A stretch of DNA of 64,000 nucleotides, taken from positions 480,001-544,000 of the forward strand of contig JBEKOM010000001.1 in NCBI GenBank assembly GCA_049521795.1. Direction: 5' to 3'. This document shows, piece after piece, positions 1 through 54,187 of this stretch. Source of the DNA: Candidatus Bathyarchaeia archaeon (GTDB lineage Archaea > Thermoproteota > Bathyarchaeia > Bathyarchaeales > Bathycorpusculaceae). The notes below the pieces were generated by a model. It was not told the DNA's origin, ran no database searches, and saw nothing but the letters and a program-made list of their open reading frames with translations. The position numbers and the translations under genes are program-made. Numbering within the stretch: position 1 is the stretch's first letter; every line of letters begins with the position of its first letter.

Positions 1-622
1 CGAGCGTTTCTTCTCTTTGCTTGCTCACTATGGATATGACCATCGGCGCGGTGCGTCTCGTTTGTTCGTCAAACTCTTTCAGCGTTTTAGGTGTTATCTT
101 CTCTATCGTGTTGGGGTATCCTGTAACAGGGTGGCCTAGACGGTTCCGTGGGAACGCTGCTTCCCAAACGTTTGTCATCGACGCTGTCATCGGGTCTTGC
201 ATAATCTTCTCGTACGCGAGTCTTTGGGAAGCCTTTTCTTTGTCAAGTTCTGACCTTGGAAAAGACGGAAACGCGTACAGTTCAGCTAGGAGTTTGAGGC
301 ATTCTTCTAATTTCTTGGAAGGAACCTGGGCCCGGAGAAGCATATAATCTCGGTCAGTCAGAGCCTCGACCGTTGCGCCTAAGCGGTCCAATGCCGCCTG
401 CAAAGCCAGAGGGCCAAGTTTCGATGTCAGCCTCAAACGCATGGAGTTGTCTGTGCACGCGCAACCTTCTATGGGGTCACTGTAGGAACCTCTTCCGACA
501 AGAAACACAACTGATGCAGAACGCAGAAACCCGTTAGAAAGCGCAACGACGTTGACTCCTTCTGAAACCTCCCTGACCAGAACTGGAAAAGCGACCACCC
601 GCCACCTTTTTCTTGAAGCCAT
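1..622 (-). CDS. M16 (insulinase/pitrilysin) family peptidase-like protein, probably non-catalytic subunit; runs off window start
   Basis: Manual translation from ATG 622: ...ASVVFLVGRGSYSDPIEGCACTDNSM...LDRLGATVEALTDRDYM...FPRSELDKEK...LGHPVTGYPNTIEKITPKTLKEF. M16 pattern, but HxxEH is absent. Not in ORF track because it is open at the edge. Confidence 0.7.
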   Translation of the reverse strand, partial: MASRKRWRVVAFPVLVREVSEGVNVVALSNGFLRSASVVFLVGRGSYSDPIEGCACTDNSMRLRLTSKLGPLALQAALDRLGATVEALTDRDYMLLRAQVPSKKLEECLKLLAELYAFPSFPRSELDKEKASQRLAYEKIMQDPMTASMTNVWEAAFPRNRLGHPVTGYPNTIEKITPKTLKEFDEQTRRTAPMVISIVSKQREETL

Positions 623-642
623 TCCTCTAAAAGCTTTTTCTC

Positions 643-654
643 CAGCGCGCGCTG
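643..654. repeat. (CG)4 palindrome CAGCGCGCGCTG at the left boundary of accessory patch 1
   Basis: Perfect 12-bp palindrome, 6 bp past the stop of the PLD gene and just upstream of the M16 gene start. Confidence 0.85.
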
Positions 655-660
655 CTTTCT

Positions 661-1782
661 CTATGGAAGAGTTTTGAGAAGATATTTCCAGAGCCAAGCC
701 TCTTCTACGAGTTTGAGGGTTCCTTGTTTTCCCAACGTGTCGACAATTCTCTGATCAGTTCTGCCCGGCCATTGCTTGTACCATCTGTATTTCACTTTGA
801 TTCGATGAGCATAACTGATACGTCCAGTCTCTTCATACATGTATTCAGGCTCTGCTTCTACTTCAGCGATTCCTAAAACTCTCGATTCCGAATACACGAT
901 GAAGACGTCGCCCTTTGAGATTTCGTTTCTAAAGGCCCATAGCTGTTTTGTTGTGTAGTTAACGTCGGTTTCTCTAGGCCAAATCTTATTCCAAATTTCT
1001 TCGGCTGTTTTGTCTACTGCTTCTCTGAGTTGGTCTTTGGTTTTGAAGTTGCCCAGATTGCCAATTTCATTCCATCCCATTGCCACGATTCCCTCCCCGT
1101 CTTCGTCGATTGCTTGAACCCATTCATCCCAGCAATTTGCGTCTTTGCCAGGAGCGATTTTCCAAATTTTGTTCGGTCTCATACTCTCCAGTTCATATCG
1201 CCTCAGCCTTGGAGATGGTAAGTCGTCTTCATTTGAAGTGCCATAGGGAGTTGTCTCAGTTCTTTGAGTGAAGCGGCGTTCGTATTTATCAACGTCCTTC
1301 CTCTTCAGAGGAGGTGCTGTGTCAAAGTAATCCGAGAAGAACTGCTCTGCGTTCTTTATGACCTCAGGTTCCGGATCTTCTACCAGAATGTTGGCTTCAG
1401 CGTTCGTGCTCTGCGCGGGTTCGGTCAGATTTGCTGAGCCTACGACGATGGATGTGGGGTTGCCGTGGAATATAAGTAGTTTCGGATGGAAACCACAGGA
1501 ATTCCATTTTCTGACGATGACATTGTTCTGTTTTGAGAGGTTCAGTAGTGCTTGAGCTGACTCTTTATCGGTTATGGCATATCGACTTGAAAGGCCGAAA
1601 ACGATCCTAAACGATCCGTTCCTTTTGAGCAGCGAATTGACACTCTTCATCAGGGTTTGCAGTCCGCCTATTTTGACGTATGCCATGGCTACGTCAAGGC
1701 TTGATGATCTTTGAAGTAATGCGGGCAGCTTGTAGGCGAGTGCAGGTCCGTCGAGAAATTCAACCTTCATGATTTGCCCCAC
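661..1782 (-). CDS. PLD (HKD)-family nuclease fused to a C-terminal EVE/PUA-like domain; putative modification-dependent restriction endonuclease
   Basis: HPKLLIF...VGSANLT...N.EAN PLD nuclease motif; C-terminal WKIAPG...WDEW...IVAMGW...GDVFIVY...VLGIAEV...HRIKVKY resembles McrB-N/EVE-like readers. Confidence 0.75.
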   Translation of the reverse strand: MGQIMKVEFLDGPALAYKLPALLQRSSSLDVAMAYVKIGGLQTLMKSVNSLLKRNGSFRIVFGLSSRYAITDKESAQALLNLSKQNNVIVRKWNSCGFHPKLLIFHGNPTSIVVGSANLTEPAQSTNAEANILVEDPEPEVIKNAEQFFSDYFDTAPPLKRKDVDKYERRFTQRTETTPYGTSNEDDLPSPRLRRYELESMRPNKIWKIAPGKDANCWDEWVQAIDEDGEGIVAMGWNEIGNLGNFKTKDQLREAVDKTAEEIWNKIWPRETDVNYTTKQLWAFRNEISKGDVFIVYSESRVLGIAEVEAEPEYMYEETGRISYAHRIKVKYRWYKQWPGRTDQRIVDTLGKQGTLKLVEEAWLWKYLLKTLP

Positions 1783-1879
1783 CGAATCCAGAGAAATTAG
1801 TTGGTATCAATTATCATATATTGTTAGCTATTTGGGGACGCCGAGTTCTCAGAATCTCAACGCGGAATGTAAGCGTGTC

Positions 1880-2140
1880 GCGCGCGCTAAGCTTCAATTG
1901 CCCTTTGTACTTTTTCTCCGTCCAATATTTCGCTGATTGTTCAGAATCAACCATCATTTGAGGTTCAGAAGTGATATCAACGACTGAATAGATCCCGCTT
2001 TCTTTTCCGGACATCCAAATCAGACCGATATGGCCGCGTGGATTTTCGTGTTTGTAGCGGCTGACAAGCCAAACGTCCTCAACCATGGCCTCGTCTGCAT
2101 GAGCATTGAGAACGTCATATTTCAGCGGGTTCGACTGATG
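1880..2140 (-). pseudogene. EVE-domain remnant, truncated at both ends
   Basis: HQSNPLKYDVLNA...DVWLVSRYK...LIWMSGKESGIYSVVDITSEP is EVE-like. It is preceded in frame by TAG, and homology ends at the CGCGCGCGC at 1879-1887. Confidence 0.65.
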
Positions 2141-2223
2141 CTAAAGTGAGCGCACTAGCCTTAGGTTCATCGGTGATGTGCATGCGACGATAATGTTCAA
2201 ATCCATGTGTCCGACAACTCATT

Positions 2224-3651
2224 ATGCGTGATTTGAGTTTGACGGAGATATCGTCTATAAAGCCAGATCTACAGTTTGGACCGCGATTATTTGTCAGCTA
2301 TTCGCATGAAGACAGGGGATTCGTGAACAGGTTGGCACTCGACCTCAAGTCTCGAAATGTCGACCTCTGGATGGATATGTACGAGATAAAGGGGGGAGAG
2401 TCAATTCTACAGTCGATAGAGGATGCAATCAAACACACTGACATCTTTCTCGTTGTTTTGTCTGCACACTCCCTGAATTCAAAATGGGTTCATAATGAGC
2501 TACTCATGATAAGTCAACTAGTAATCACGCAGGAGAAGATCCTAATCCCTATAGTTGCAGATAAGTGCGACGTACCCCTATTTCTAGCAACACGCAAATG
2601 GATCGACTTCGCACATCAATATGAACTTGCCCTGAATGAGCTATTATCGTCTTTGGAACATTGGGGACTTTGGAAAAAAGACAAGGTGCTAGGTGCAATG
2701 TTAGAAGATCTAGAAAAGAAAGAATCCTCTGAGAAAGGACTCTCAAATGGCTACACGGCGATTGGCAGAATCGCTTTTCAGATAGGCTTGTATGGCGAGG
2801 CAAAAGAGATCCTAGAAAAAGGGATGAGACTTGACCCAACCAACTCCGACCCTGTTCATTTGCGAGCGATTGTCCTGATAAAGTGCGGTCAGTTCACAGA
2901 GGCAGAGGCCATTCTTAGAAACCTAAGTTCCGAAGGTCCCCAAAAAGAGCGAGCATTTTTCAATCTTGCTTGTCTCTATTCTAGATGGGCCCAGGTGGCT
3001 GGTGACCAAGATCGTCGCATACGTGAAAGATGCTTGAAACAATGTTATGAAAACTTGACCAAAGCGTTCAGATTCAAAATTGTAGAATGGCTAAAAACTT
3101 ATGGGCATCGAAGAGATCCTATGGGAGACATACTAGGAGATCCTGACCTAGCTTATGGCATAAGAGCATATCCTAAAATCGAGAAATATCTGAAGATCAA
3201 AGCAAGGCAATATAGGCATCGATGGTCAGCTCGGCAGGTCTGCGGAGGCGGCGGAGGTTGTCTAGTGGGGCAAGCGAAGGTCCTCTTGAAAGGGGGAAAA
3301 GAAATTCCAATCGAAGACATACGCTGCGGACAAGAAGTAGTCAGCAACACTATTGGGAACAACTCTCAAGTTTCAATGATTTGGAGAAAAATGCGATCTC
3401 TGGCTGACCAAGGTGTATGCATAAACAACAAATTAACAACAACTAATGGACAGCGAATTCTCACGACCAAAGGTTGGCAAGAAGCTGATCAACTTCACGT
3501 AGGAGACATGATGTTAGGCCCTGGAAGAAGGACTGAAAGAATCCGAAAAATCGAAAGATGGATCGGTGCTCGAGCTGTCTTCCAACTCGGTCTAGAGGGC
3601 AGACCATTTTTCACAGCCGACCAGGTTCTAGTACATAACCTTAAAGATTAA
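2224..3651 (+). CDS. TIR - TPR - poly-Gly - Hint (intein-like) fusion protein
   Basis: TIR: FVSYSHED...WMD..EIKGGESI...FLVVLS..SLNSKWVHNEL. TPR: AKEILEKGMRLDP, AFFNLACLYS. Then GGGGG|CLVGQAKV...IPIEDIRCGQEV...KGWQEADQLHVGD...ADQVLVHN-LKD, a Hint domain at 3259-3639. Confidence 0.85.
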   Translation: MRDLSLTEISSIKPDLQFGPRLFVSYSHEDRGFVNRLALDLKSRNVDLWMDMYEIKGGESILQSIEDAIKHTDIFLVVLSAHSLNSKWVHNELLMISQLVITQEKILIPIVADKCDVPLFLATRKWIDFAHQYELALNELLSSLEHWGLWKKDKVLGAMLEDLEKKESSEKGLSNGYTAIGRIAFQIGLYGEAKEILEKGMRLDPTNSDPVHLRAIVLIKCGQFTEAEAILRNLSSEGPQKERAFFNLACLYSRWAQVAGDQDRRIRERCLKQCYENLTKAFRFKIVEWLKTYGHRRDPMGDILGDPDLAYGIRAYPKIEKYLKIKARQYRHRWSARQVCGGGGGCLVGQAKVLLKGGKEIPIEDIRCGQEVVSNTIGNNSQVSMIWRKMRSLADQGVCINNKLTTTNGQRILTTKGWQEADQLHVGDMMLGPGRRTERIRKIERWIGARAVFQLGLEGRPFFTADQVLVHNLKD

Positions 3652-3948
3652 TAGCGTGCGCTTTAAGAAAAAAGAAGGGGTTGTGCGGAATATCGTGGAG
3701 ATATCTCCACTTGGATGTGCAAATGGGAATTTACATTCTCGCGCGCATACGCTAAGTTGAGATGGACCTGCACGTCTGCGACTGCGATATGCCCATTCTG
3801 ACTCAAATCAAATTGCGCGCTAGGAAACGACAAAAAGGAGCAAGAGGCCCATAATATCGCGCTCTAATCTGGGCTTGGGTTCTCTCCCAACCTATTTATT
3901 TCTCCCCAACAAAATGAATCATGAAAAGGATTCTAGGAGTAGAGACAT

Positions 3949-4932
3949 TTGGAAATCAAAGAGCCGTATAACACTGGTGTCGAAGAAGTGTTCTCGAACT
4001 TCTCAAAAGATCCTTGTCTTGGGAAACATTGTGTAATCGAATGCCCAGTGGGCTTCACATGCATTCGTGCTGTGCCTCCACGTTCAGGGGAGTTCAGACT
4101 AGATCTCAGTCTCTGCAACTTGAAATGCCCCTTTTGTTGGACCATCAACAAGCCACACCCATGGTATTATGGAGAGATATTTGAACATGTCAAGTGCAGA
4201 TTCGACAAGTTCTGCAGGTCGAATTTGAATGTTAGCATAGGATATCTGAGGATTACTGGGGGAGAGCCCATTTTAACGGAGGGAAGAGCACGTCATCTGC
4301 TTAGCCTATTTCAGTTGATAGATGATGACCTGAAGCGGGAAGATTTCTATGCGATTTGGAAGACCAGAAAATCACCTGAGAACTTGGAGGGGAGAAAAAA
4401 CATAAAAATCCAAACGAATGGGATAACTATCTCAAAAATCGTGGACCTTTTCGTTGACAAGCTGATCAGTTTCAAAAACATATCTCTAACGTTTGAGGTA
4501 TCATTGAAAGGAACCAATCCATATGAGTTTCAAATACTGTCAGGTGGGTTCCCGAGTGAAAGATTCTTCGAACAGATAAAGGCAATAGATAGATTGTTGG
4601 ACTGTGAAGATCAAGGTTTCCCAGTATTCGTCCGGGGTATTCTCGGAATCTTTCACAGTGCTCAATATGATCTAGTCTTTGAAGAAAACGGAAAGAGGAT
4701 GATGCTAGATCCATGCAGAGAGTTCAAGAAAATCGTCAGTAGACTTCAAAGTATGCCAAGATGTCGGGAACGAGTATATGTGGAACCATTGAGGTTTACT
4801 GCCCAAATGAAAGAAGCAGAAGAGACATGTAGAAATCTAAGAATCGTTGCAGACTCGAGAGTTGGCAGGTATATCAAACCAGGAAAGAAGATTCGTCTCA
4901 AAGACACATATTTGGAGAAAATGCTGAGTTAG
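3949..4932 (+). CDS. Radical SAM protein of unknown function
   Basis: CNLKCPFC (CxxxCxxC), RITGGEP, IQTNG, FEVSLKG; extra N-terminal Cys cluster; AGGAG upstream of the TTG start. Confidence 0.85.
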   Translation: MEIKEPYNTGVEEVFSNFSKDPCLGKHCVIECPVGFTCIRAVPPRSGEFRLDLSLCNLKCPFCWTINKPHPWYYGEIFEHVKCRFDKFCRSNLNVSIGYLRITGGEPILTEGRARHLLSLFQLIDDDLKREDFYAIWKTRKSPENLEGRKNIKIQTNGITISKIVDLFVDKLISFKNISLTFEVSLKGTNPYEFQILSGGFPSERFFEQIKAIDRLLDCEDQGFPVFVRGILGIFHSAQYDLVFEENGKRMMLDPCREFKKIVSRLQSMPRCRERVYVEPLRFTAQMKEAEETCRNLRIVADSRVGRYIKPGKKIRLKDTYLEKMLS

Positions 4933-5091
4933 ACGCAGGTCAATGGTGCGATCCGAGCGACAAGCGAACCACTTCGCGCGCTATGCAAAGAAACGCGCGC
5001 GCTCGTTTAGTTCTTCATTCGTGTATCCCATAAATGTTCCCTCATAGCAACTTATTTATCTACAACTTTAAATGTTTTAAAATGATGACAT

Positions 5092-5352
5092 ATGCCGAGA
5101 AAATTTAAGGTTGAAAAGGCTCATTGTAAGCGTCACGATGTGAATTTTGAAAAGCTTATCCAAGCTAGGGTTTCATGTCCCCGATACCAGCAATGTCGAG
5201 AAGAGGCAATCGCACGCCATGAAGGCAATATCGCTGAGGCTAAACAAGAAGCAGAAAAGAAAGGAAGACCGTTGGTGGCGGTGAAAGCTGTTCTTCAGAT
5301 AGTGTGTCCTTACGAAGAACCGACGCAAGATATTCCTGAACATTTTCCATGA
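5092..5352 (+). CDS. Small Cys-containing hypothetical protein
   Basis: ATG ORF of 86 aa after an AT-rich promoter-like tract; C..H, CP...C and CP residues. Confidence 0.55.
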   Translation: MPRKFKVEKAHCKRHDVNFEKLIQARVSCPRYQQCREEAIARHEGNIAEAKQEAEKKGRPLVAVKAVLQIVCPYEEPTQDIPEHFP

Positions 5353-5402
5353 ATCTCCCTGGTCATTCGAGTAGGAGGAGCTTAAAGGGTCAATTGACAG
5401 GG

Positions 5403-5764
5403 ATGTTAGGTTCTCTTGACAAGATGTTCGAAAGTCTGACGGCTCTGCTAGCTTTCATGGTCGCAGCGATACTTGGTATTCTTTTCTGGATGGTTAAGAC
5501 TCCGAATGATTTTTGAATATTATTGAGGTTTGCGGCTTCATTGGTCGTCCCATTTATCGTAATGGTTCTTTTCTGGTTTTGGACCGCCCTCACTTCGACA
5601 GAAGAAATGAAAATTCGTCTGAAGTTGATTGCTTGGAGTAAGCTATCATTCATCTTTATGTATTATGTTGTGATTTTCTCAGTTCTTGTCTTGCTGAAAC
5701 TGATAGCAGACTTCCCAATATTGAGTGCATTCGTACTCATGGGAATAGTGACTTTGGCGCGCGC
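5403..5764 (+). pseudogene. Membrane protein pseudogene (in-frame TGA at 5514-5516; 3' end cut at a (CG)4 site)
   Basis: ATG 5403 MLGSLDKMFESLTALLAFMVAAILGILFWMVKTPNDF*ILLRFAASLVVP... continues in frame into track ORF 5523-5771; hydrophobic helices end at GCGCGCGC 5757-5764. Confidence 0.6.
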
Positions 5765-6402
5765 TTGTTAAACGGCGTTCTATCTTTCCTATCATAATTC
5801 CTCAGGTCAATTAAGAGAACCTTCTTATGAGAAAGCCATGCTGTTAGAAAATCTCTCACGAACTGTCGTCTTCCTTTCACACCGCCTAATCCAGCGTCAA
5901 AAACCTTCAATAACGACAAACCAGTAGGCATTTCAAACTCTCTTATCTCCCCAGTCTTCTGGAAATGTATGATAGCTCGAACTTGATATTCTGGAAGCTT
6001 CTTAAGAAGAATCTCCACTGGATTCGTAAACGCCAAATCTTCGCCACTCACAAACCTACAGAGTATCTCATTCAAGAAACGCACATACAGTTTCCCAGAA
6101 GGACTGTCCCACAAAGGCTCGAACTGTTGAAAGAAAGCTTCCGTGCCTAACCATTGAGTTGAAACAGCTTCGTCGCCAAAAAAGTTCTCAAACGCATTTC
6201 TAAGCGCGGTTTTTCCAATTCCCTGTTGACCCATTACAGCTATGAATTGCGAATTTTGAGTAGCTAAATCGTTTCTCAAGTCCTCAGTCGCTTGAGTCCA
6301 ATAATAATTTGAATTCCAATTGTCTTCTGCTCTGGTATGTCGCGCCCACGCATATTGCTCTTCGTATCTAATTATCTGACTAATTCCAGAATTTGTTTTC
6401 AT
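5757..6402 (-). pseudogene. P-loop NTPase, 3'-truncated just after Walker B
   Basis: Walker A GQQGIGKT and Walker B VLLID; the frame reaches the (CG)4 at 5757-5764 about 14 codons later and stops. Confidence 0.65.
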
Positions 6403-6473
6403 TTTTGCAGAGGGGTTAGAAGGGTTTGGAGGCCCAGAATCGTCTTCGTATCCAATTATCTCTGGAGATTTTT

Positions 6474-6803
6474 CTATTGTTGATTAGATGCCACTTTCTT
6501 ACTTCCCGTTTTATCCTCTGTGGCAACGAAATGTTTTTCTGGGATTGGATAGATACTTAGATGCGATTTGTCATTATCCCCATCGTCAACATCCATAACA
6601 GAGTGTATGTCTTCCTGCAACGCTTGTCGCTGTTTCTCCGATAGCTCTCTGTCCTCAGAATCTTCATTCATCTTCCGCCTTTTGTCTAGCAGCTCAAGCA
6701 AGCGCCTTTCTTGCTCCTGACTTCTTGTTTCTGTTGGCATTTTAGACAAAAGGTCAAGTTCCTTCTCGTCTGAATCCGAGAAATGGAAAGGCCTACTACT
6801 CAT
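6474..6803 (-). CDS. Acidic/coiled-coil hypothetical protein; possibly the frameshifted N-terminus of the downstream NTPase
   Basis: ATG 6803 after GGTGGGGTGG; the NTPase frame is open from about 6483 (STIEKSPEIIGYEDD...MKTNS). Confidence 0.45.
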   Translation of the reverse strand: MSSRPFHFSDSDEKELDLLSKMPTETRSQEQERRLLELLDKRRKMNEDSEDRELSEKQRQALQEDIHSVMDVDDGDNDKSHLSIYPIPEKHFVATEDKTGSKKVASNQQ

Positions 6804-6978
6804 TGCCACCCCACCTTGGTATGAGCACGCCCTAGGCACTGACGACCGTAAGTCTGACAAATGTGAAAAGAAAAGGAGGGGATTGCGCGGGAGATGTCGC
6901 CACAGTGCTTAAGATAAAACTTTACCCCCAAACCCAAAATAGAAATATTTTTCAAATAGCTATTCATACGTAGCTTGT

Positions 6979-7323
6979 ATGGAAACCGAAGATTCTGAAA
7001 TAAATTGCCCTTTTTGCAAGACGCCTATGACCGAAGGATACGCTTCGCTGCAGGGCGCAATCAACGCCGTGGTCTATTTCAGCAAAAAGAGCATGTCGTG
7101 GGGACCAGGATTATTGTCAGCGTTAGGCAAAGAAAGAGAAACGATACTTGACAATATTTCTTCGCAGGAACACGCGAGACCAGCTTACAAATGTGATAAC
7201 TGTAATGCTGTTCTCCTCAGAGGAACGGCAAGTCCGACACAGGCTGATTATGCCGAGGCTAAAGACCTTGAAAAAGAAAAAGAAGATTTGCGGGACAACG
7301 TTCGCATGATGCAAGGATTCTAA
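6979..7323 (+). CDS. Zinc-ribbon protein (PF20097/DUF6487-like)
   Basis: CPFCKTPMTEGY...AYKCDNCNAVL. Confidence 0.7.
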   Translation: METEDSEINCPFCKTPMTEGYASLQGAINAVVYFSKKSMSWGPGLLSALGKERETILDNISSQEHARPAYKCDNCNAVLLRGTASPTQADYAEAKDLEKEKEDLRDNVRMMQGF

Positions 7324-7581
7324 TAGCTTTGCACGCGATAGCGTGTCTATAGGGTGGGTGGGATAAAACTTTGCCCTTTTTCTTCTTGTTCCTCTACTTC
7401 TCTTGTTACTATTAATTATCTCTCTTGCTTTCCTACACCTTGGCACAAACATAAAAACAAAAACAAGAAAAGACAGACACGGACGGACATACACGTAGAC
7501 AAAGTTGAAATAGGAAGTGTTCAGTGAAAGACACATTGACTGAACGTATCATTTAGAGGCTTGGGCAGTTCGGTGATATTT

Positions 7582-7623
7582 GTGATTGATGCTGAGAATC
7601 TGACAAAGAGATTTGGCGATCTG
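7582..7623 (+). pseudogene. N-terminal remnant of an ABC transporter ATP-binding gene
   Basis: GGTGA RBS, then (V/M)IDAENLTKRFGDL; homology is lost after that. Confidence 0.5.
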
Positions 7624-8035
7624 GACAGAAAAGAGCTCAATATAACGCCTTTTTCTTTCCGCAACCTGTTAGTTGACGAAGATCTCAATGAGAGCTAGTC
7701 ATGAAGTCCTCCGATTCTGAGTTCCCTTGCCTGTCCTTCTTGACATAGCAAGCGCCCTTGTTGCGTTTCTTATGTTTTTTGGGACGCGAGCGCGCACGTG
7801 AAAAACGAGGGAGAAATGAAGGGAGAAAGGAGAAAGGAAAAGTTTTCTCCCACGCATTTCATTAAGTTATGAAGTGTCAATCTGCGATTTAATTCTACGT
7901 TTTTGTACGCGTGTGCAAACGATTTGAACAGCGCGCGCTTTCCGACGACCGTGCGCGCAGAAGAAAGCCACTTTCTCGAGCCCGCGCTATACTTTATTAT
8001 ACTGGAAGAAAGGCAAAAAACTGGAAGGACGCGTT

Positions 8036-9361
8036 TTGGGGAAAGCGAAGAACGCTCGGGAAAGTTGGCAGAGTGCGGCCCAAACTCCGGATCTACAGAG
8101 TGGATCAGAGAGAACAAAGCACGGCGCCTGGGTCAATGCTGTTCTTCCCTTTAACGTCGCCTTAGGGCCTGTTGGAACTCTAATTCAGCTTCTCATACTC
8201 AACCTGCACGGAACGGTAATTGATGTTGGCTTAGCTGTCACTCTTTTCAACGCGGTCAGTGTGCCCTCCGCAGTAGTGTGGGGTTTTGTCACAGATCGCT
8301 TCCATAGGAGAAAGACGATAATCGTCGTAAGCTACTTGGTGACAGCTGGGGTTCTGGTTTCGTTTCTTTTTGCAACCACAGGATACGTTGTTTCATTGCT
8401 GTACGCGTTGTTTTCGTTTGTATCGTCCGCTTCAACGACGCCGCTGAATCTTCTCATCATGGAGACGGAGAGCAAGCAGAAGTGGGCGACCGCCTTCGCC
8501 AGGTTCTCCATGATCACGAGCATCGGCAACACTGTGGGGTTGATGCTGAGCGTGGCTTTGGGATTTTTCTTTTCTTTGAATTACCTCGTGCTTCTTTTGG
8601 CTATTCTCACCGTAGTATCTGCGGTTCTTGCTGTGTTGATGATACAGGAGCCCAGCGTGATCTTCGAGCGAAACGTCATCGTGTTGAACAAACCGAGCTT
8701 CTTCCAGCGGCTTCAAGCTGTCCCTTTATTCTTCCTCAGGGTTCCCCGTTTGAGCGATTTCAGAAGAGTTTTCAGGAACCTAAGGTACGAACTTACTCGA
8801 CAGATGCCTATTCTCTACTTCTCAATCTTCATGTTCTACTTCGCGTCGGGACTCTTCAACACTTCAATTGTTGCCTCTCTGCAGGCGAATAGCCTTTCCA
8901 GCTTCCTGATTTTCCTCGTCATGACTATAATGATGCTGGCCCAGATAGTGGCGTTCAAGTATTCGGGACCTTACACTGAAAAGAGGTCGCTGGTGAAAAC
9001 ATCTGTGGAAGGGCTCGTGCTCAGGTCCGCATGTTATGGGGTTCTGGGAGTGTCATTGTACATGATTTCTGGACTGTGGTTTTTGATTCCTGTCTTGATT
9101 TTCTATCCACTCGGGGCAGGTGTTGCCTTCTCGCTGTATTACACTGCGTCCAACACGATGGTGTTCAACACGCTTAGCGGGGCGAGGCAGGGTCAATCCT
9201 TAGGAGTGTACAGTGCACTTGTGGGAATCGCCAGTCTTGTGGGTTCGGCGGTTTCAGGGTTTACGTCTTTTTTCCTCGGCTTCTCCACGACATTCATCCT
9301 AGCTGCTGCGTTCATGGGATCATCCGCATGGCTTGCCTCATTACTGGAGCATTCTAAATAG
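8036..9361 (+). CDS. MFS transporter
   Basis: About 12 TM helices; motif A WGFVTDRFHRRK. Confidence 0.9.
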   Translation: MGKAKNARESWQSAAQTPDLQSGSERTKHGAWVNAVLPFNVALGPVGTLIQLLILNLHGTVIDVGLAVTLFNAVSVPSAVVWGFVTDRFHRRKTIIVVSYLVTAGVLVSFLFATTGYVVSLLYALFSFVSSASTTPLNLLIMETESKQKWATAFARFSMITSIGNTVGLMLSVALGFFFSLNYLVLLLAILTVVSAVLAVLMIQEPSVIFERNVIVLNKPSFFQRLQAVPLFFLRVPRLSDFRRVFRNLRYELTRQMPILYFSIFMFYFASGLFNTSIVASLQANSLSSFLIFLVMTIMMLAQIVAFKYSGPYTEKRSLVKTSVEGLVLRSACYGVLGVSLYMISGLWFLIPVLIFYPLGAGVAFSLYYTASNTMVFNTLSGARQGQSLGVYSALVGIASLVGSAVSGFTSFFLGFSTTFILAAAFMGSSAWLASLLEHSK

Positions 9362-9519
9362 CGCGAGCAGAGACAGACAAAGAGAAACAAAAACTCAAAT
9401 TCTAACTACTCTTACCGTTCAGACCACATAAAGACTAAATTCTGCCAGCAGTTCATTCGCGCGCGCTAATTGTAAATTGGAAATCGATTGAAAATGAGCT
9501 TTTTCATCCACCGTAGATT

Positions 9520-9876
9520 CTATTCTTCTGCTTCGTTCTTTTTCATCCGGGCTTTCACAAGCTTCTTTATGAGTGGAACGGGAATTTTTCTGTCCAACTG
9601 AAGGTGGACGGCTGATTTGGTGGTCTCGTAACCCGCTAGAACATTCTTGTGTTCCTCGATAACAGGAGGACGTATGTAGAGTCCAATGTGCGCCTTCTGA
9701 AGACCAAACCAAGCCAGCCGCCCTTTATAATCATAGTAAGGCATTCTGTAACTGATACTTTCGTGGGCAGACGGAGCTGCTTCCCGGATTGCTGCCCGAA
9801 CCTCTCTCAGTTTATCCTGCACTTCTTCGGGAGCTGCCGATATGTACTCATCTACATTCTTCGCCGCTTTATCCAT
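9520..9876 (-). CDS. DUF1801 (YdhG-like) protein
   Basis: VDEYISAAPEEVQDKL..VRAAIREAAP.A.ESISYRMPYY...IPVPLIKKLVK. Confidence 0.85.
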   Translation of the reverse strand: MDKAAKNVDEYISAAPEEVQDKLREVRAAIREAAPSAHESISYRMPYYDYKGRLAWFGLQKAHIGLYIRPPVIEEHKNVLAGYETTKSAVHLQLDRKIPVPLIKKLVKARMKKNEAEE

Positions 9877-10144
9877 GGTTGAATTACAGGCTTGAAATTA
9901 TTTTAAACCTTTTGAAAAGAAAAGCTAGTCGCGGAGACAATACAAAAGACTCCACAGAATTGATTAGCAGAAAGGAAAAAATAACCACTTCACATGAGCC
10001 CGCTAAATGACAAACAAGTTCTCTTTGACGCGAGAGCACGCAGTTTGGAACTAGTTTTTCCTATGCCTGATGAGTCGACACAGAAAGATTCATACGGGAT
10101 CAGAATCTATAGGTCATGCAAGATTTGTGAGGATGGATGTTTGA

Positions 10145-10507
10145 ATGCCGATTTCGGACACGCGTAAGTGGAAGGTCAACAAGCCTGCCGAGGAAGTACG
10201 GAAGACAGTTGTGAATACTCTGGCCAGTAAGAAGGCGACGCTCTTGGAAGCTAGCACGACAAGGATTGAAGCCAAGATTGGATCAGAAGCGAAAACACGG
10301 TTTCTCGGAGGTATCTTTGTGTCCAAAGAGACGCTTCCTGTGAAGATGACAATGCAGATTAATGAGACAGGGGGAGAATCGGAAATAAACGCGACGATCA
10401 TGGACAATCTAGGGGTCGGACTCAGGACAGGCATGGAGGGCAAGTACAAGGAGTACATACAAAGTCTGTTCAACGAACTAGCCAACGCATTGCAAGTCAA
10501 GAGCTAG
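10145..10507 (+). CDS. Hypothetical protein
   Basis: 120-aa ATG ORF with natural composition. Confidence 0.6.
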   Translation: MPISDTRKWKVNKPAEEVRKTVVNTLASKKATLLEASTTRIEAKIGSEAKTRFLGGIFVSKETLPVKMTMQINETGGESEINATIMDNLGVGLRTGMEGKYKEYIQSLFNELANALQVKS

Positions 10508-10833
10508 CTGACCCCAATTATTTGGATAAGCTCATCATCGTGTGAGTACGCCTCTTTAGAATCTGCCGGAAGTCATTTGAAGATCTTGAACCCGTCTGTG
10601 TAGGCGTTCTCGTGTCCGCTGGCTTGCTGGAAGTGCCAGACGCGCTTTGAGCATGGCGATTTTCATGTTTACCCAGATGATTTGCAAAATCAGACAATGA
10701 AAAACGAAGTTAGATTAGCGACAAACATTCAACGATTTTGCCTTGGCGCGCGCGAACCAGAAGACAACCTTTCACGTAGTTTCAAAGCAGTAAATCCTAA
10801 TTCTTAAATATCGCTTGAACCTCTAATGAAATT

Positions 10834-11220
10834 ATGGTTAGGAGAAAGCGTGTTCCTTCAGTTAGTAACACTATTTTTGGAACGCCTAAGATAAGAACGG
10901 TAAAGAATCCTCTCAAGGTCGGTTTTCCCAGTCTTTACCCAAGTCAACCTAGAAAGGATTCGAGAAGGTCTTTTTCTTCAACTCAAAGAAAACAGATTCT
11001 ATATCAGCAAGACAATAAGTGTGCAAGGTGCCATAAGAAACTTGACCCTAGAGCGACACATTTTCATCATGCTAAGCCGTGGTCTTCTGGTGGAAGAACA
11101 AAAGTCGAAAACGGAAGAGGATTATGTGCAAGTTGCCATGAAATTCTATCGCATGGAGAACGATTGAAGAAAGTGGATAAGAAAAGAAAGAAAAGAGAGC
11201 CTTCATTGAGTCTATTTTAG
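10834..11220 (+). CDS. HNH endonuclease
   Basis: CARC...HFHH.KPWSSGG.T..ENGRGLCASCH. Confidence 0.9.
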   Translation: MVRRKRVPSVSNTIFGTPKIRTVKNPLKVGFPSLYPSQPRKDSRRSFSSTQRKQILYQQDNKCARCHKKLDPRATHFHHAKPWSSGGRTKVENGRGLCASCHEILSHGERLKKVDKKRKKREPSLSLF

Positions 11221-11478
11221 TGTTGAAGCATGCCTCAGAATGAACGTTTTTGTTGGTTCATATTTGGATCCAAATATCCATGGTACGTTGAAACCTAGGA
11301 GGGGTAGATCCCTCCCGTCAGGAAGAGAAAGTGCGACTATGGGTTTGCGCTTGGAAGCCGGGGATGGTAGTTGGACCCTAGGGCGCGGGCTAGGGGCCAT
11401 CTGGCACGTTGTGTTCAGGATTCGGACAGCAAATAAGAAATAAAAACAGGAGGATATATAGAACGTGGGGCAACGGGT

Positions 11479-51456: not shown

Positions 51457-51793
51457 CAAAACCATAAAGTGAAAACTGCACATTTAAACTTCTTTCAAAA
51501 AGAAACCTGAAAAGCCCAGGCACTTCTCTGCCATCTCAACGTCTGCATGAAGAACGCTGCCTGGCGAGGATGGGTCAACGCAACTCGCAACGCGTCCTTG
51601 AAGAAAACATTCAATGAACCATTGAGAACCTTGCCAAAGTCAAGCTCGCTGTTTGTTTTGTAAGCCGAAGGCATTCATGAAACCTCGACCATCAGCAAGG
51701 CCAAACCGTCGCTCAAATACATTCCGTTGGGGCATCCACTTTCTGATGAGCAAGCTTGAGCGCTTGATTTCTGGGCATGCGCGCTTTGGACAG

Positions 51794-52330: not shown

Positions 52331-52479
52331 AAGAGGTAAGTCCGATCTGAGACTATTCTTGGCATCGGATCAAGTATGAGGGCTGTAGCGCGCGACTCTC
52401 GAAATGCCAAATCAGCCTACCACTAGATTAGGTCTCGTCGTCAAACCTGTATAAGCGCGCGCGAAAGGACTCGACAAGA

Positions 52480-53727
52480 TTAAGGGTCTGAACCCACGTA
52501 TAGTCTAAAACTGCCGCTTATGAGTATCGTGTCCAAAATGTTGACTATGCCATCATTGCTTACGTCTGCCGCAGGGTTCCAATTCGGATCCCCAGGCGAG
52601 GACCCGAAAGCGTTGGCTGCGGTTATAGCGTCTAGGATGTTGACGCTGCCGTCGTCGTTGACGTCGCCAAACAACCTGACCTTTACGAGCACGAGACTGG
52701 ACATAACGTTGTTCGTGATGTTGGCTTCGCCTAGAATCGTGCTTGCAACGGCCGTGATATTATACCAGTGAGAGGGCTGAGCACCTGTGCTGTTCCAAAC
52801 AAACCTGAGCACAAGAGTCCCGTTTGGAGGCAAATTCGTGACTGGCTGAGTCCCGATAGTGACGTTGGCCGGTATTGCAGTAGCGTTGAGCGCATACAAG
52901 CTGACCGTGAAGTTTTCAGTCGCTTCGCCCAAGTTTGCGACGGTAACGTTGACGCCGGCATGACAAAGCTTGCCCTGATAAACCCAATCAGCATCAGGCA
53001 CGACTTCAGTGACAGCCACGTCACGTAACATCGCAGCCTCCAGACTCAGGGTGCAGTTTGTCGTCTGACCTTGATGCACAACAGCCAACGTGGTGTTTGA
53101 CAAATACCCAGTCATGCTCGCGGTCACAGTGTAATTCCCCGCCGTAACGTTGTAGAACGTCCAGTTTCCACTGTTTCCAGTTATGTTCCAATGTGTTTCT
53201 GGTCCCTGAATAGAAACGTTTGCACCGACGATCGGGTTTAACGTTGCAGCGTCAATCACAGTTACCATGAGATTGCCCTGGTTGGGCACAGAAACGGCCT
53301 GTAGGCTCAGGGTGCAGTTTGTCGTTAGGTCTGGATTTACTATAGCCAGCGTACTGTTTGGCAGATACCCACTCATGGTGGCGGTGACATTGTAGGTTCC
53401 TGACGTGACGCTGTAGAACGTCCAATTTCCACTATTTCCAGTAATGTTCCAGTGCGTTTCCGGCCCCTGAATCGAAACGTTCGCACCGACAATCGGGTTT
53501 AACGTTGCAGCATCAACCACATCCACCATAAGATTGCCCTGGTAAAAAGGCACGCACAGCGTGCGCGAGAGACCTTTGCCGATCGCAGTGTTTATGTCTA
53601 TTTGAGAAGCTGCAGATGTCTTTGGAGTTAATACGACAAAGGTTGAAAGAAGAATCGCTGATATAATTATGAGAGAAGCTACCTTTCCAAGCGAAGCTAC
53701 CTTCCTCACTACTCCATCCCCTCCCAC
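52480..53727 (-). CDS. Secreted/surface protein: signal peptide, two carboxypeptidase-regulatory-like repeats, CARDB, dockerin
   Basis: Hydrophobic N-terminus; duplicated 87-aa unit; RDVAVT..NVTVANLG; GDVNDDGSVNILD...ADVSNDGIVNILD. Confidence 0.85.
   Translation of the reverse strand: MGGDGVVRKVASLGKVASLIIISAILLSTFVVLTPKTSAASQIDINTAIGKGLSRTLCVPFYQGNLMVDVVDAATLNPIVGANVSIQGPETHWNITGNSGNWTFYSVTSGTYNVTATMSGYLPNSTLAIVNPDLTTNCTLSLQAVSVPNQGNLMVTVIDAATLNPIVGANVSIQGPETHWNITGNSGNWTFYNVTAGNYTVTASMTGYLSNTTLAVVHQGQTTNCTLSLEAAMLRDVAVTEVVPDADWVYQGKLCHAGVNVTVANLGEATENFTVSLYALNATAIPANVTIGTQPVTNLPPNGTLVLRFVWNSTGAQPSHWYNITAVASTILGEANITNNVMSSLVLVKVRLFGDVNDDGSVNILDAITAANAFGSSPGDPNWNPAADVSNDGIVNILDTILISGSFRLYVGSDP
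53036..53541. repeat. Intragenic tandem duplication, period 261 bp
   Basis: GATTGCCCTG at 53271 and 53532; DAATLNPIVGANVSIQGPETHWNITGNSGNWTFY is identical in both units. Confidence 0.9.
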
Positions 53728-53842
53728 GTCTACATTCTATACAAATAGGCGCGTACTCTTATGGTTTTCTGAATCGGGTCATAAAGGAATGTTCCATGTT
53801 GACTGAACAATAAAGCTCGAAACGATCCCCGTTCAGCGCGCG

Positions 53843-53976
53843 CTAAACGTTCCCAACAAGCAGGCGTCCCATCGCTGCATCCATGTTGATGGTGCGTCTT
53901 GTCTTCTTCGTTTTGTGCTGCACCTTAAGGCTCCAGATGGGCAGCAGAACCAGTTCCCTTGACTCTGACTTTACGC
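53843..53976 (-). pseudogene. C-terminal remnant of an unknown gene
   Basis: SRELVLLPIWSLKVQHKTKKTRRTINMDAAMGRLLVGNV*; no start codon; the stop overlaps GCGCGCGC 53836-53843. Confidence 0.45.
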
Positions 53977-54187
53977 CTCACAAACCAAGTCCTTGGACCC
54001 ACCCGACAGCCCCCCATCCAACATGAACATCCACAGCGTTTTCAACAATGCCGGCTCACTGTATATACAAAATGTATATGCAAAACGTATAAGCTCTTGC
54101 GCGCGCTCCGTTCTCTTTCTCACAGTGCCTTTCCTGACACTATCAATTATCTCGGATCGACACAAAGGCGAGCTTGCACGCACGCTA

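Follow-up and report, generated by a model that had tools for sequence, protein, structure and literature searches.

The GC palindrome GCGCGCGC looks like a favoured joining point for new genes in a genus of peat Bathyarchaeia

The octamer GCGCGCGC is a highly iterated intergenic palindrome that is specific to one genus of peat Bathyarchaeia. It sits where DNA has been inserted, swapped or moved, and thus looks like a favoured joining point for new genes in these archaea. The variable segments that end in or at its copies range from MITEs of ~160-190 bp through one- and two-gene cassettes to blocks of up to 13 kb. The chances are, in our judgement, about even that the palindrome serves as a preferred DNA joint which is cut and rejoined mainly by an IS5 transposase acting in trans, with end-joining or short homology contributing.

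The window, that is, the whole 64-kb stretch of DNA analysed here, contained 10 exact matches to GCGCGCGC (starting at 645, 1880, 4995, 5757, 7931, 9459, 10746, 52455, 53836 and 54099), against a mean of 1.10 and a largest value of 5 in 100 dinucleotide-preserving shuffles. All ten positions, together with an expectation of about one copy, had been given in an initial annotation of the window and were reproduced. Alternating C/G runs of at least 6 nt were found at 3740-3746, 3815-3820, 4975-4981, 7790-7795, 7953-7958 and 52388-52394, which confirms the shorter variants annotated near 3741, 3815, 4975, 7785-7796 and 7953, while those annotated near 2150, 3654, 3858, 7331, 9361 and 10641 do not form runs of this length. 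The window scan found no exact octamer between 10754 and 52455, but nine GCGCGC/CGCGCG 6-mers lie in that interval and two more after 54106, so the claim that the core is free of the motif is true of the octamer alone. Since the density of 10 copies per 64 kb is the same as that of the genome as a whole (417 copies in the 2.44 Mb of the focal genome, G000), the excess is a property of the genome and genus and not of the locus, and the motif is not the accessory-patch feature that it had been taken for. The local feature is clustering: by arithmetic, the octamer-free 41.6 kb of the window should have held ~7 copies. The features of the islands are as follows.

645..652, GCGCGCGC copy, 9 nt past the stop codon of the PLD gene and ~25 nt before the start of the M16 peptidase gene
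653..7745, strain-specific segment with five genes (Pfam)
661-1782, minus strand, PLD nuclease (Pfam)
1879..1887, CGCGCGCGC copy between the PLD and TIR-TPR genes
2224-3651, plus strand, TIR-TPR (Pfam)
3949-4932, plus strand, radical-SAM-like (Pfam)
4975..5002, copy pair, CGCGCGC at 4975-4981 and CGCGCGCGC at 4994-5002, 43-63 nt past the stop of the radical-SAM-like gene
5737-6402, minus strand, AAA fragment (Pfam)
5757..5764, GCGCGCGC copy within the last codons of the AAA-fragment ORF
6979-7323, plus strand, DUF6487 zinc ribbon (Pfam)
7746..7756, decayed copy TAGCAAGCGCC, right-hand joint of segment 653..7745
7931..7938, GCGCGCGC copy that precedes the MFS gene (8036-9361, plus strand), with 6-mers at 7790-7795 and 7953-7958
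9458..9466, CGCGCGCGC copy in the spacer of the convergent MFS and DUF1801 genes
10746..10754, GCGCGCGCG copy, 80 nt ahead of a small HNH endonuclease gene (10834-11220, plus strand)
52388..54106, second patch, with copies at 52388-52394, 52455-52463, 53836-53843 and 54099-54106
52480-53727, minus strand, CarboxypepD_reg/dockerin protein gene, flanked by copies of the second patch

The gene content agreed with that annotated initially, the M16 peptidase, PLD nuclease, TIR-TPR, radical-SAM-like, AAA-fragment, DUF6487 zinc ribbon, MFS, DUF1801, HNH and GH57 genes all being recovered. The copy at 645..652 is the left joint of the island, as homology to the related genome G001 extends to window position 653 and then ends, the motif being common to both genomes and the divergence beginning after it. 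No nucleotide match to segment 653..7745 turned up in 10 genomes of the same genus, and the place of the segment in G001 is taken by 143 bp with three motif copies. Homology to G001 restarts at 7746, where G001 holds an intact TAGCGCGCGCT at the point matching the decayed TAGCAAGCGCC. The copy at 7931..7938 lies within a block (7746-9506) common to G001 at 94% identity, the copy at 9458..9466 is missing from G001, where the flanks align over a 7-nt gap, and the colinear alignment with the compared part of G001 ends at 51532. Metagenome contigs from three other, independent samples bridged five of the motif copies without differences, namely those at 645 (sample X2, record 9, 21-1035, 0 differences), 1880 (X2, 1694-2269, and X3, 1270-2080), 5757 (X3, record 21, 5321-5858), 7931 (X4, record 29) and 9459 (X3, record 24, 8725-9592).

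Genome-wide, GCGCGCGC is the most over-represented octamer of G000, at 11.6 times the order-3 Markov expectation, and its one-off variants are mildly over-represented. The same octamer again ranks first in G001, at 12.8-fold excess (a single contig with 464 copies), while no octamer exceeded 3.3-fold in 400 kb of a sister genus. All ten other genomes of the genus are motif-rich (29-464 copies), as against 0-14 copies in 26 of the 30 genomes from other genera. The consensus is TA-GCGCGCGC-TA with runs of 6-10 nt, TA being present on both sides in only 17 of 191 maximal (GC)4 runs. An A before and a T after the motif, a preference noted initially within the window, was borne out across the genome (of the 417 copies, 192 have A at -1 and 211 have T at +1).

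Intergenic DNA, which makes up 18.5% of the genome, holds 343 of the 417 copies, a density of 0.85 per kb compared with 0.033 per kb in coding DNA (~26-fold), the intergenic share depending on gene calls from a crude home-made codon-score ORF picker. Density was highest in convergent spacers (1.13 per kb), followed by tandem (0.87) and divergent spacers (0.63); only ~11% of spacers bear the motif, often in several copies. The proposed link to stop codons proved modest, with the copy centre 0-9 nt past the stop boundary in 34 of 417 copies and a stop abutted by 16 of 361 runs. Copies were strongly clustered in 10-kb bins (variance-to-mean ratio 5.7, the highest value among 2000 simulations with the non-coding fraction as weight being 1.74) and are concentrated in flexible islands of low GC content that serve defence and glycosylation. 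Hot regions include gene-poor stretches and a glycosylation island on contig C13, where gene-motif arrays run in the same orientation and tightly packed operons contain no copies. Within one 412-kb span, density was 0.042 per kb in G001-aligned and 0.19 per kb in unaligned DNA; for intergenic DNA only, the difference was modest (0.23 and 0.51 per kb, with just 9 copies per class).

Comparison of G000 with G001 placed a G000 octamer within 8 bp of 20 of 245 homology ends, whereas random intergenic positions gave a mean of 2.6 and a maximum of 7 in 300 runs, an ~8-fold excess. An octamer of either genome lay near 38 of the 245 ends, the ten commonest 8-mers at these ends were all motif variants, and GCGCGC occurred at 40 ends compared with 6.5 expected. 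The motif was present in 9 of 12 translocation-type adjacencies and in only 1 of 6 orientation switches. The initial proposal of the motif as a recombination joint is partly supported; in 57 of 94 indel or replacement events the motif was at neither junction. Three findings had been named as counting against that proposal, and none was obtained outright: breakpoints coincided with the motif far above the random-intergenic null, the junctions were supported by other samples, and the motif was not equally dense in conserved regions, a weak test since the comparison within intergenic DNA rests on 9 copies per class.

Several inserts have one copy on each side where relatives have a single copy. 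At C1:208570, G000 and G002 carry a single GCGCGCGC and G001 has 1750 bp between GCGCGC and GCGCGCGC; at C1:477941, G001 has an additional 1255 bp between two GCGCGC; and at C3:43054 of G002 a 163-bp MITE stands where G001 has TAGCGCGCGCTA. From such configurations we infer by parsimony that at least three insertions entered a pre-existing copy. A 13.4-kb insert starts with the motif at a target without it, in two cases GCGCGC was replaced by the insert, and some junctions are degenerate or motif-free on one side. The apparent duplication at insertions ranged between 2 and 6 bp and does not resemble a target-site duplication of fixed length. Some cassettes have a cargo of one or two genes, among them a toxin-antitoxin-like pair. 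On the tree obtained from identities, ((G001,G002),G000), the motif was at the joint of 6 of 14 segments found in a single genome and of 0 of 10 that a single genome lacks (p ~0.02, hypergeometric by hand), and 4 of 10 events polarised as insertions were motif-associated, these being small event counts polarised with three genomes and no outgroup.

GCGCGC forms the ends of a genus-restricted IS5-family element, of its MITEs (160-190 bp) and of its derivatives with cargo, the inverted-repeat ends being GCGCGC-(AT/TA)-GCGTGTTCCTAAATTC and GCGCG-TTGGCTTGTCCCTAAATTC. In G004 a 1.08-kb element encodes a 328-aa DDE_Tnp_1 + DUF772 transposase, an intact copy is also present in G009, and G000 has the transposase as fragments only. 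The 1750-bp insert described above has 21-nt inverted ends that are 86% complementary, contains a nested MITE and carries two ordinary genes. This end pattern was counted 76 times in G002, 38 in G001, 23 in G004 and 15 in G000, and not once in 30 genomes of other genera. Neither G008 (254 copies; assembly 88% complete) nor G005 (128 copies; 93% complete) had such ends or a transposase homologue, and the inverted repeat was seen in none of the ~50 flanks listed for G008. A recognisable inverted-repeat core lay within 45 bp of only 3 of 73 homology ends near GCGCGC and beside only 5 of 361 octamer runs of G000, so this known transposon family accounts for a small minority of the joints. The IS5-family transposon and MITEs with GCGCGC ends had not been foreseen in the initial annotation.

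On the reading that we prefer, DNA would break and rejoin at the self-complementary GC run, most likely through the DDE transposase that the resident IS5-family element supplies in trans, with a further contribution from end-joining or from recombination between copies over short homology. An insertion at a one-copy site leaves a copy on either side, so that flexible islands take the form gene-motif-gene-motif. Bare copies would then be target sites and scars, decaying later through point mutation and slippage of CG units. A passive process, in which an abundant, identical all-G+C 8-10-mer, present in dispensable DNA for some unrelated reason, favours illegitimate recombination and slippage and is recognised by no enzyme, seems to us rather unlikely. 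Overlaps of 6-21 bp at nine of ~29 motif-free simple indels indicate that short-homology events are common in general, run lengths at junctions vary, and conservation of the copies does not measurably exceed that of other intergenic 8-mers (6/10 compared with 0.464). However, such a process leaves the abundance and genus-specificity of the motif unexplained; in its deletion-only form it predicts the motif at losses, where none was seen, and it fits poorly with the 13.4-kb insert and the two replacements of GCGCGC. Quite improbable, too, is the originally proposed site-specific recombinase, which would act in trans on the palindrome as a minimal att site and move circular cassettes as in an integron. 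The one-copy and two-copy configurations, the same-orientation arrays of C13, the small cassettes with their toxin-antitoxin-like pair and the ~10 tyrosine recombinases per genome, several in motif-rich bins, all fit such an enzyme. Yet the analysis turned up no dedicated recombinase, the motif-poor relative G012 has just as many tyrosine recombinases (11), segments between close copies form no repeat or sequence family and fold no better than shuffles (mean z-score -0.3), giving no attC-like structure, a recombinase site of 8-12 bp would be a short one, and some junctions are degenerate or one-sided.

We consider it very unlikely that a restriction-like endonuclease cuts GCGCGC(GC) and lets motif-bounded fragments be pasted into cut targets through their self-complementary ends. 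Donor and target cutting would suit the three kinds of joint (motif on both sides, at the insert end only, or destroyed at the target) and the translocation junctions; but a genome usually avoids the recognition sites of its own restriction systems, here the site is 11.6-fold enriched, no candidate nuclease was identified and no C5 methyltransferase is conserved. Of the co-occurring enzymes that the initial annotation suggested looking for, a C5 methyltransferase is not conserved in the genus, PF00145 being found only in G000 and G002 among 11 genus genomes. Little likelihood likewise attaches to a transcription-unit boundary signal (terminator, insulator or dimeric regulator site), with breakpoints hitting the motif because viable rearrangements end between transcription units. 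The order of spacer densities, the copies just past stops and the copy-free operons of C13 agree with this, but most spacers lack the motif and others have several, it also occurs in 5' regions (e.g. 25 nt before the M16 start), it is gained or lost between species with flanks intact, and its coincidence with homology ends is sharp. Least probable of all is a HIP1-like palindrome made and kept by methylation-dependent repair bias and unrelated to gene capture; the motif is indeed a hyper-abundant, lineage-specific, GC-rich octamer palindrome with a mild excess of one-off variants, but PF00145 is missing from G001 despite its 464 copies, and the motif is 26-fold depleted in coding DNA.

HIP1 (GCGATCGC) has been linked to excision and recombination. 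Like HIP1 and the alternate cyanobacterial palindromes, GCGCGCGC is an 8-bp GC-rich, lineage-specific top octamer with hundreds of copies; unlike HIP1, it is nearly confined to intergenic DNA, is clustered in flexible islands, and belongs to an archaeon with no conserved C5 methyltransferase. Methylation-dependent repair bias has been proposed for HIP1 (Elhai 2015, PMC4390886), an article with no occurrence of GCGCGCGC. REP/BIME elements, palindromes associated with RAYT transposases and targeted by insertion sequences (Tobes and Pareja 2006, PMC1525189), are similarly extragenic, commoner at gene 3' ends, present in hundreds of copies, species- or genus-specific, and tied to mobile-element insertion and rearrangement joints. 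In contrast, GCGCGCGC has only 8-12 conserved bases and no 20-40 nt stem-loop, Y1 (RAYT) transposase was absent from all five genomes searched, and no IS110-type transposase was found. Integron cassette arrays, reported in Archaea too (Ghaly et al. 2022, bioRxiv 10.1101/2022.02.06.479319), likewise have single genes poor in promoters with a short site recurring between them, one site when empty and two around an insert, and toxin-antitoxin-like and defence cargo; the GCGCGCGC arrays, however, lack an attC-like imperfect hairpin and an adjacent integrase or attI, their copies are dispersed over hundreds of places and not gathered in one array, and many junctions are imperfect. With respect to IS5-family elements and MITEs, the ends here differ in that the iterated palindrome itself forms their beginning, target duplications vary in length, and most palindrome copies and motif-bearing joints have no inverted-repeat ends beside them; what is shared is the DDE_Tnp_1 + DUF772 transposase in a short element with inverted ends, the MITEs, and a derivative in which two ordinary genes lie between the same ends.

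The palindrome is a genus-specific, intergenic, island-clustered iterated motif. The initial annotation, made from the window's sequence alone, had listed copies of GCGCGCGC, an 8-bp self-complementary GC palindrome (bare motif TAGCGCGCGCTA), and had ascribed to it an integron-like capture and shuffling of genes. Ten exact copies were confirmed at the positions it gave, where dinucleotide-preserving shuffles led to an expectation of 1.10; six shorter runs of 6-7 nt were verified as well, and the genes of both motif-bearing patches agreed with its list. The window corresponds to C1:480001-544000 of the source genome, and the stretch is also contained in peat and wetland metagenome runs. Throughout the source genome, G000 (2.44 Mb in 69 contigs), GCGCGCGC occurs 417 times and ranks first among all octamers, at 11.6x its order-3 Markov expectation, with its own extensions AGCGCGCG and TAGCGCGC ranking next. 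It was likewise the top octamer (12.8x) in an 800-kb sample of the sister genome G001. The copies in G000 were often preceded by A (192/417 at -1) and followed by T (211/417 at +1), with a weaker bias to T at -2 and A at +2; more than 2 nt away from the 8-mer, on either flank, no conservation was found among them. Run length, a point of comparison with Z-DNA-forming (CG)n tracts, which adopt a left-handed helix, was abruptly limited, with 56 runs of length 10 and three of length 11.

All ten other genomes of the genus carry the motif, with 29-464 copies each, while 26 of the 30 genomes taken from the order's other genera contain 0-14. The exceptions were G024 (227), G030 (53), G019 (30) and G039 (19). 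G024, from another genus of the same family, contained 209 copies of the reversed control CGCGCGCG beside its 227 of GCGCGCGC, and its richness may come from (CG)n or high GC in general and not from the motif of the genus. A different iterated palindrome in a sister genus was discounted, as no octamer exceeded 3.3x in a 400-kb sample of G018. Two other words, CGTTTACG and ACGTTTAC, were mildly over-represented (2-3x) genome-wide in G000 and G001 and also in that motif-free sister genus (G018:C1:1-400000), and may represent a regulatory word common to both genera.

Genes were called in G000 with a crude codon-score ORF picker (2305 genes, 81.5% of the genome), by which 343 of the 417 copies were intergenic, 8 straddled a gene edge and 66 lay within genes, with densities of ~0.85/kb in intergenic and 0.033/kb in coding DNA. 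Convergent spacers had the highest density (1.13/kb), followed by tandem (0.87) and divergent (0.63) spacers, the motif occupying just ~10-15% of spacers, often several times in the same one. A stop codon was abutted by 16 of 361 runs, 10 of which share the G of a TAG stop. The distribution was strongly clustered, with a variance-to-mean ratio of 5.7 in 10-kb bins against at most 1.74 when copies were dealt by non-coding fraction; 109 of the 216 bins held no copy, eight held 10-18, and bin counts fell with both G+C (rho -0.34) and coding fraction (rho -0.44). Pairs less than 200 bp apart numbered 62, with 9.5 expected. On contig C13, a glycosylation island encoding GT2, GT4, epimerases and an Asn-synthase-like gene, almost all spacers that separate transcription units hold 1-4 copies. 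The gene-poor C2:5.8-12 kb carries ~23 runs, and one segment between two copies there corresponds to a C-terminal fragment of a protein encoded elsewhere.

The multi-copy genes suspected of coding for transposases proved to be paralogues of a GT4 glycosyltransferase and of a GNAT acetyltransferase. The former, of 416 aa and 79-91% identical, is found in triplicate in motif-rich places of G000, each copy co-duplicated with a small upstream ORF. The six GNAT paralogues, of ~180 aa and several at contig ends, have a conserved ~25-nt flank (TTTTGCGGAAAAGTTATAGC...) on both sides of the gene.

Paralogous gene copies in G000
C2:4556-5806, 416-aa GT4 glycosyltransferase
C1:395802-397052, 416-aa GT4 glycosyltransferase
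C4:122647-123897, 416-aa GT4 glycosyltransferase
C3:59254, GNAT acetyltransferase
C10:346, GNAT acetyltransferase
C12:43529, GNAT acetyltransferase
C14:20788, GNAT acetyltransferase
C15:396, GNAT acetyltransferase
C7:71304, GNAT acetyltransferase

Comparison of G000 with 800 kb of G001, a single-contig genome of the same genus, yielded 125 non-redundant alignments, which span 541 kb with an identity of 91%, and the motif coincides sharply with the ends of these alignments (homology ends). The octamer in G000 lay within 8 bp of 20 of 245 usable ends, compared with a null mean of 2.6 and a maximum of 7 in 300 runs; for G001 the number was 24, for either genome 38 and for both 6. The commonest 6-mers and 8-mers at homology ends were motif variants throughout. 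GCGCGC was present at 40 ends against 6.5 expected, and in a 14-bp window in either genome at 73 of 245. Only 30 copies in G000 fell within aligned DNA, 12 of them within 15 bp of an alignment end. Among 94 adjacent colinear alignment pairs, the motif marked at least one junction in 37 and neither in 57; it was also present at 9 of 12 translocation-type adjacencies. Inversions at the motif received no support, as it accompanied one of six orientation switches. Across C1:119-531.6 kb, restricting the comparison to intergenic DNA gave 0.23/kb in aligned against 0.51/kb in unaligned sequence, from nine copies per class. Conservation of intergenic copies between the two genomes was 6/10, against 0.464 for all intergenic 8-mers, in what is a small sample, and the changes seen in lost copies were single transitions, indels of a CG unit or clean gaps of 7-8 nt.

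The direction of these events was assessed with 386 kb of a third genome, G002. Pairwise identities (G001-G002 93.4%, G000-G001 91.1%, G000-G002 91.6%) gave the tree ((G001,G002),G000), and each simple indel was classed according to the form, empty or filled, in which the third genome spans its junctions. The ambiguous indels 192768, 193265, 394995, 125313, 326546 and 395003 were left out, as were all those outside the G002 sample. The motif was at the joint of 6 of 14 segments present in one genome only (132727, 208570, 334097, 336056, 154925, 327668) and at none of 10 segments lacking from one genome only (p ~0.02, hypergeometric, by hand). Placed on the tree by parsimony, ten events were insertions into G001 or G002, of which four involved the motif, and four were deletions, of which none did; this polarised set is too small for a test of its own. 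Some insertions entered single pre-existing copies. At 208570, 327668 and 132727 the insert lies in a pre-existing copy and has a copy on each side, at 334097 and 154925 it replaces GCGCGC, and at 336056 a 13.4-kb insert starts with GCGCGCGCG in a target that lacked the motif. At C1:477941 the same copy has three different right-hand neighbours in three genomes. One insert carries a MEDS-domain regulator and a zinc-finger protein; another carries a nucleotidyltransferase and a winged-helix protein.

Within the window, the following segment is missing at the corresponding place in G001 and had no nucleotide match among the ten other genomes of the genus.

Window 653-7745, segment with PLD, TIR-TPR, radical-SAM-like, AAA fragment and zinc ribbon

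After its M16 peptidase gene, G001 has GCGCGCGC, 46 bp, GCGCGCGCGC, 90 bp and GCGCGCGC, and then an MFS block matching window 7746-9506. The left joint of the segment is an intact copy common to both genomes, and the right joint is decayed in G000 and intact in G001. The copy at 9458 is not in G001, the flanks there aligning over a 7-nt gap, and the distance from M16 to GH57 is 31 kb in G001 and 10.8 kb in G000. No tRNA or known RNA was found in the window. At 661-3651, the TIR-TPR protein (TIR_2, E=1.7e-26, with a ThsB-like match) has as its neighbour a nuclease of the PLD family whose N-terminal domain is NgoFVII-like; the two look like a defence pair, and no nucleotide relative of the pair was found in the ten genus genomes.

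The initial annotation had allowed that the joints could be assembly chimeras. This was dismissed, since contigs from three samples besides the probable source bridge the motifs at 645, 1880, 5757, 7931 and 9459 with zero differences. Contigs of four runs showed no alternative joint at the motif in window 1-13000; contigs drop rare variants, and so this absence is uninformative on ongoing recombination. The sole joint seen in them, from 6933 to 7453, sits in another repeat. Short repeats at 7353-7480 (~120 bp), 6909-6939 (~28 bp) and 7887-7933 (~46 bp, abutting the motif at 7931) are found again elsewhere in G000 and in further genomes of the genus, and the extra contig depth and the skipped joint, in one run, map to them. 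A further repeat of ~48 bp at 11256-11307 (within 11238-11391), just upstream of the GH57 gene, has dozens of copies per genus genome, with more than 25 among the matches listed for G008; it is a point where many metagenome contigs stop or fork, and no Rfam or tRNA match to it was found.

The motif's hexamer also forms the ends of an IS5-family element restricted to the genus, of its MITEs and of a derivative that carries cargo. The 163-bp insert in G002 proved to be a MITE whose inverted ends, ~46 nt long, start TA|GCGCGCATGCCTGTTCC, and a regular expression picked out the end family GCGCGC-(AT/TA)-GCGTGTTCCTAAATTC. MITEs of a second family, 184 bp long and matched 27 times in G000, have ends GCGCG-TTGGCTTGTCCCTAAATTC. 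The cargo insert of 1750 bp is bounded by inverted ends of 21 nt, complementary at 86%, and a MITE of 175 bp is nested in it. On contig C204 of G004, 1.08 kb between GCGCGC-type inverted ends codes for a 328-aa transposase with DDE_Tnp_1 and DUF772 domains (Pfam E-values 2.4e-20 and 1.4e-10), by which the element was assigned to the IS5 family. This transposase is also intact on contig C18 of G009 (87% identity), frameshifted in G001, broken in G002 and present as fragments in G000, and was not found in G003, G005, G006 or G008. The end pattern was counted 76 times in G002, 38 in G001, 23 in G004, 15 in G000 and 1-3 times in each of G003, G007, G009 and G010, with none in G005, G006, G008 or any of the 30 genomes from other genera.

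The excision of such elements as the origin of all copies was weakened by G008, which has 254 copies and no recognisable element; none of the ~50 G008 flanks listed resembled the inverted repeat. Little of the signal stems from this transposon family, since an inverted-repeat core lay near just three of the 73 ends that bear the motif and five of the 361 runs of the octamer, with chance at 0.4% per window. An ungapped test of 2335 motif pairs detected no inner inverted repeats, and a looser regular expression found the minority family. Duplication at inserts, by GC-run bookkeeping, was 2-6 bp. Taken together, the variable duplication, the scarcity of inverted repeats where DNA is joined and a G008 rich in the motif but free of the element argue that the known transposon gives only part of the explanation. 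A MITE or long repeat as a general explanation was ruled out by the lack of conservation past 2 nt of flank. Some complete MITEs among nine listed have TA on both sides. An IS630/Tc1-type transposase, suggested by TA flanks, was considered and rejected (PF13358, 0/5 genomes); IS110 transposases were likewise absent from five genomes.

We suggest that DNA would be broken and joined at the GC run. An IS5-family transposase may act in trans on GCGCGC-ended DNA, and the bare copies may represent targets, scars or a mixture of the two. Less probably, the joints may be owed to short homology acting passively, to a recombinase dedicated to the motif or to a nuclease specific for it. No recombinase was found in window 1-12 kb, and PF00589 tyrosine recombinases number 9-15 per genome, with 11 in the motif-poor G012. 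A bolder reading, which we regard as rather unlikely, is that the 8-bp word is a universal gene-capture adaptor of the genus. A nuclease or transposase recognising hardly anything beyond (GC)3-4 would cut both donors and targets, so that any gene could be pasted between two copies, forming an integron-like platform without attC hairpins or an adjacent integrase; the IS5-like elements and MITEs with GCGCGC ends would either be related to this machinery or parasitise it.

A full-text literature search found no description of GCGCGCGC in archaea or of intergenic palindromes in Bathyarchaeia. As far as that literature shows, this would be the first archaeal highly iterated palindrome tied to recombination joints, and HIP1 and REP phenomena would reach beyond bacteria. 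To our knowledge, how archaea assemble and reshuffle flexible islands of defence, cell-surface and transport genes is largely unknown, and genetic manipulation of Bathyarchaeia is not yet possible. The motif flags 16-30% of synteny breakpoints within the genus, and it surrounds cassettes in defence and glycosylation islands, making it a possible metagenome marker of recently exchanged DNA. It also offers a concrete substrate for biochemistry on the IS5-like transposases that are intact in G004 and G009, and, if the minimal 8-bp site is enough for insertion, a possible engineering tool for these organisms.

Several known systems invite comparison. Sequences of the DUS/USS type are enriched in the core genome and depleted in recently acquired islands; in contrast, the motif was denser in unaligned (0.19/kb) than in aligned DNA (0.042/kb) of C1:119-531.6 kb. 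As with HIP1, it is an octameric palindrome many-fold over-represented through one lineage. HIP1-type palindromes, however, are accompanied wherever abundant by a cognate orphan DNA methyltransferase, and a C5 methyltransferase (PF00145) was present in just 2 of 11 genus genomes. REP sequences are extragenic imperfect palindromes with a stem-loop, served by a Y1 (IS200/IS605-like) RAYT transposase; the motif, unlike these, has no stem-loop and no conservation past 2 nt of flank, and PF01797 was found in 0/5 genomes. In integrons, attC sites are imperfect, hairpin-folding inverted repeats of ~55-140 nt at the 3' end of each cassette, an IntI-type tyrosine recombinase and attI adjoin the array, and the core site is duplicated when a cassette inserts. 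The arrangement seen at C1:208570, C1:477941 and G002 C3:43054, with a single site where the locus is empty and a pair flanking the insert, is integron-like. The initial annotation's view that attC hairpins are lacking was borne out by 113 segments between close pairs (20-220 nt), with a mean fold z-score of -0.30 and 8% below -2. Few segments between close copies share sequence, and they form no sequence family and no structure; attC-like hairpins at motif pairs were ruled out by the z-scores and this scant sharing. The motif thus fails the defining tests of HIP1 (methyltransferase), REP (stem-loop plus RAYT) and integrons (attC). It nevertheless resembles HIP1 in form and REP in its placement and its attraction of mobile elements, and its arrays resemble integron cassettes.
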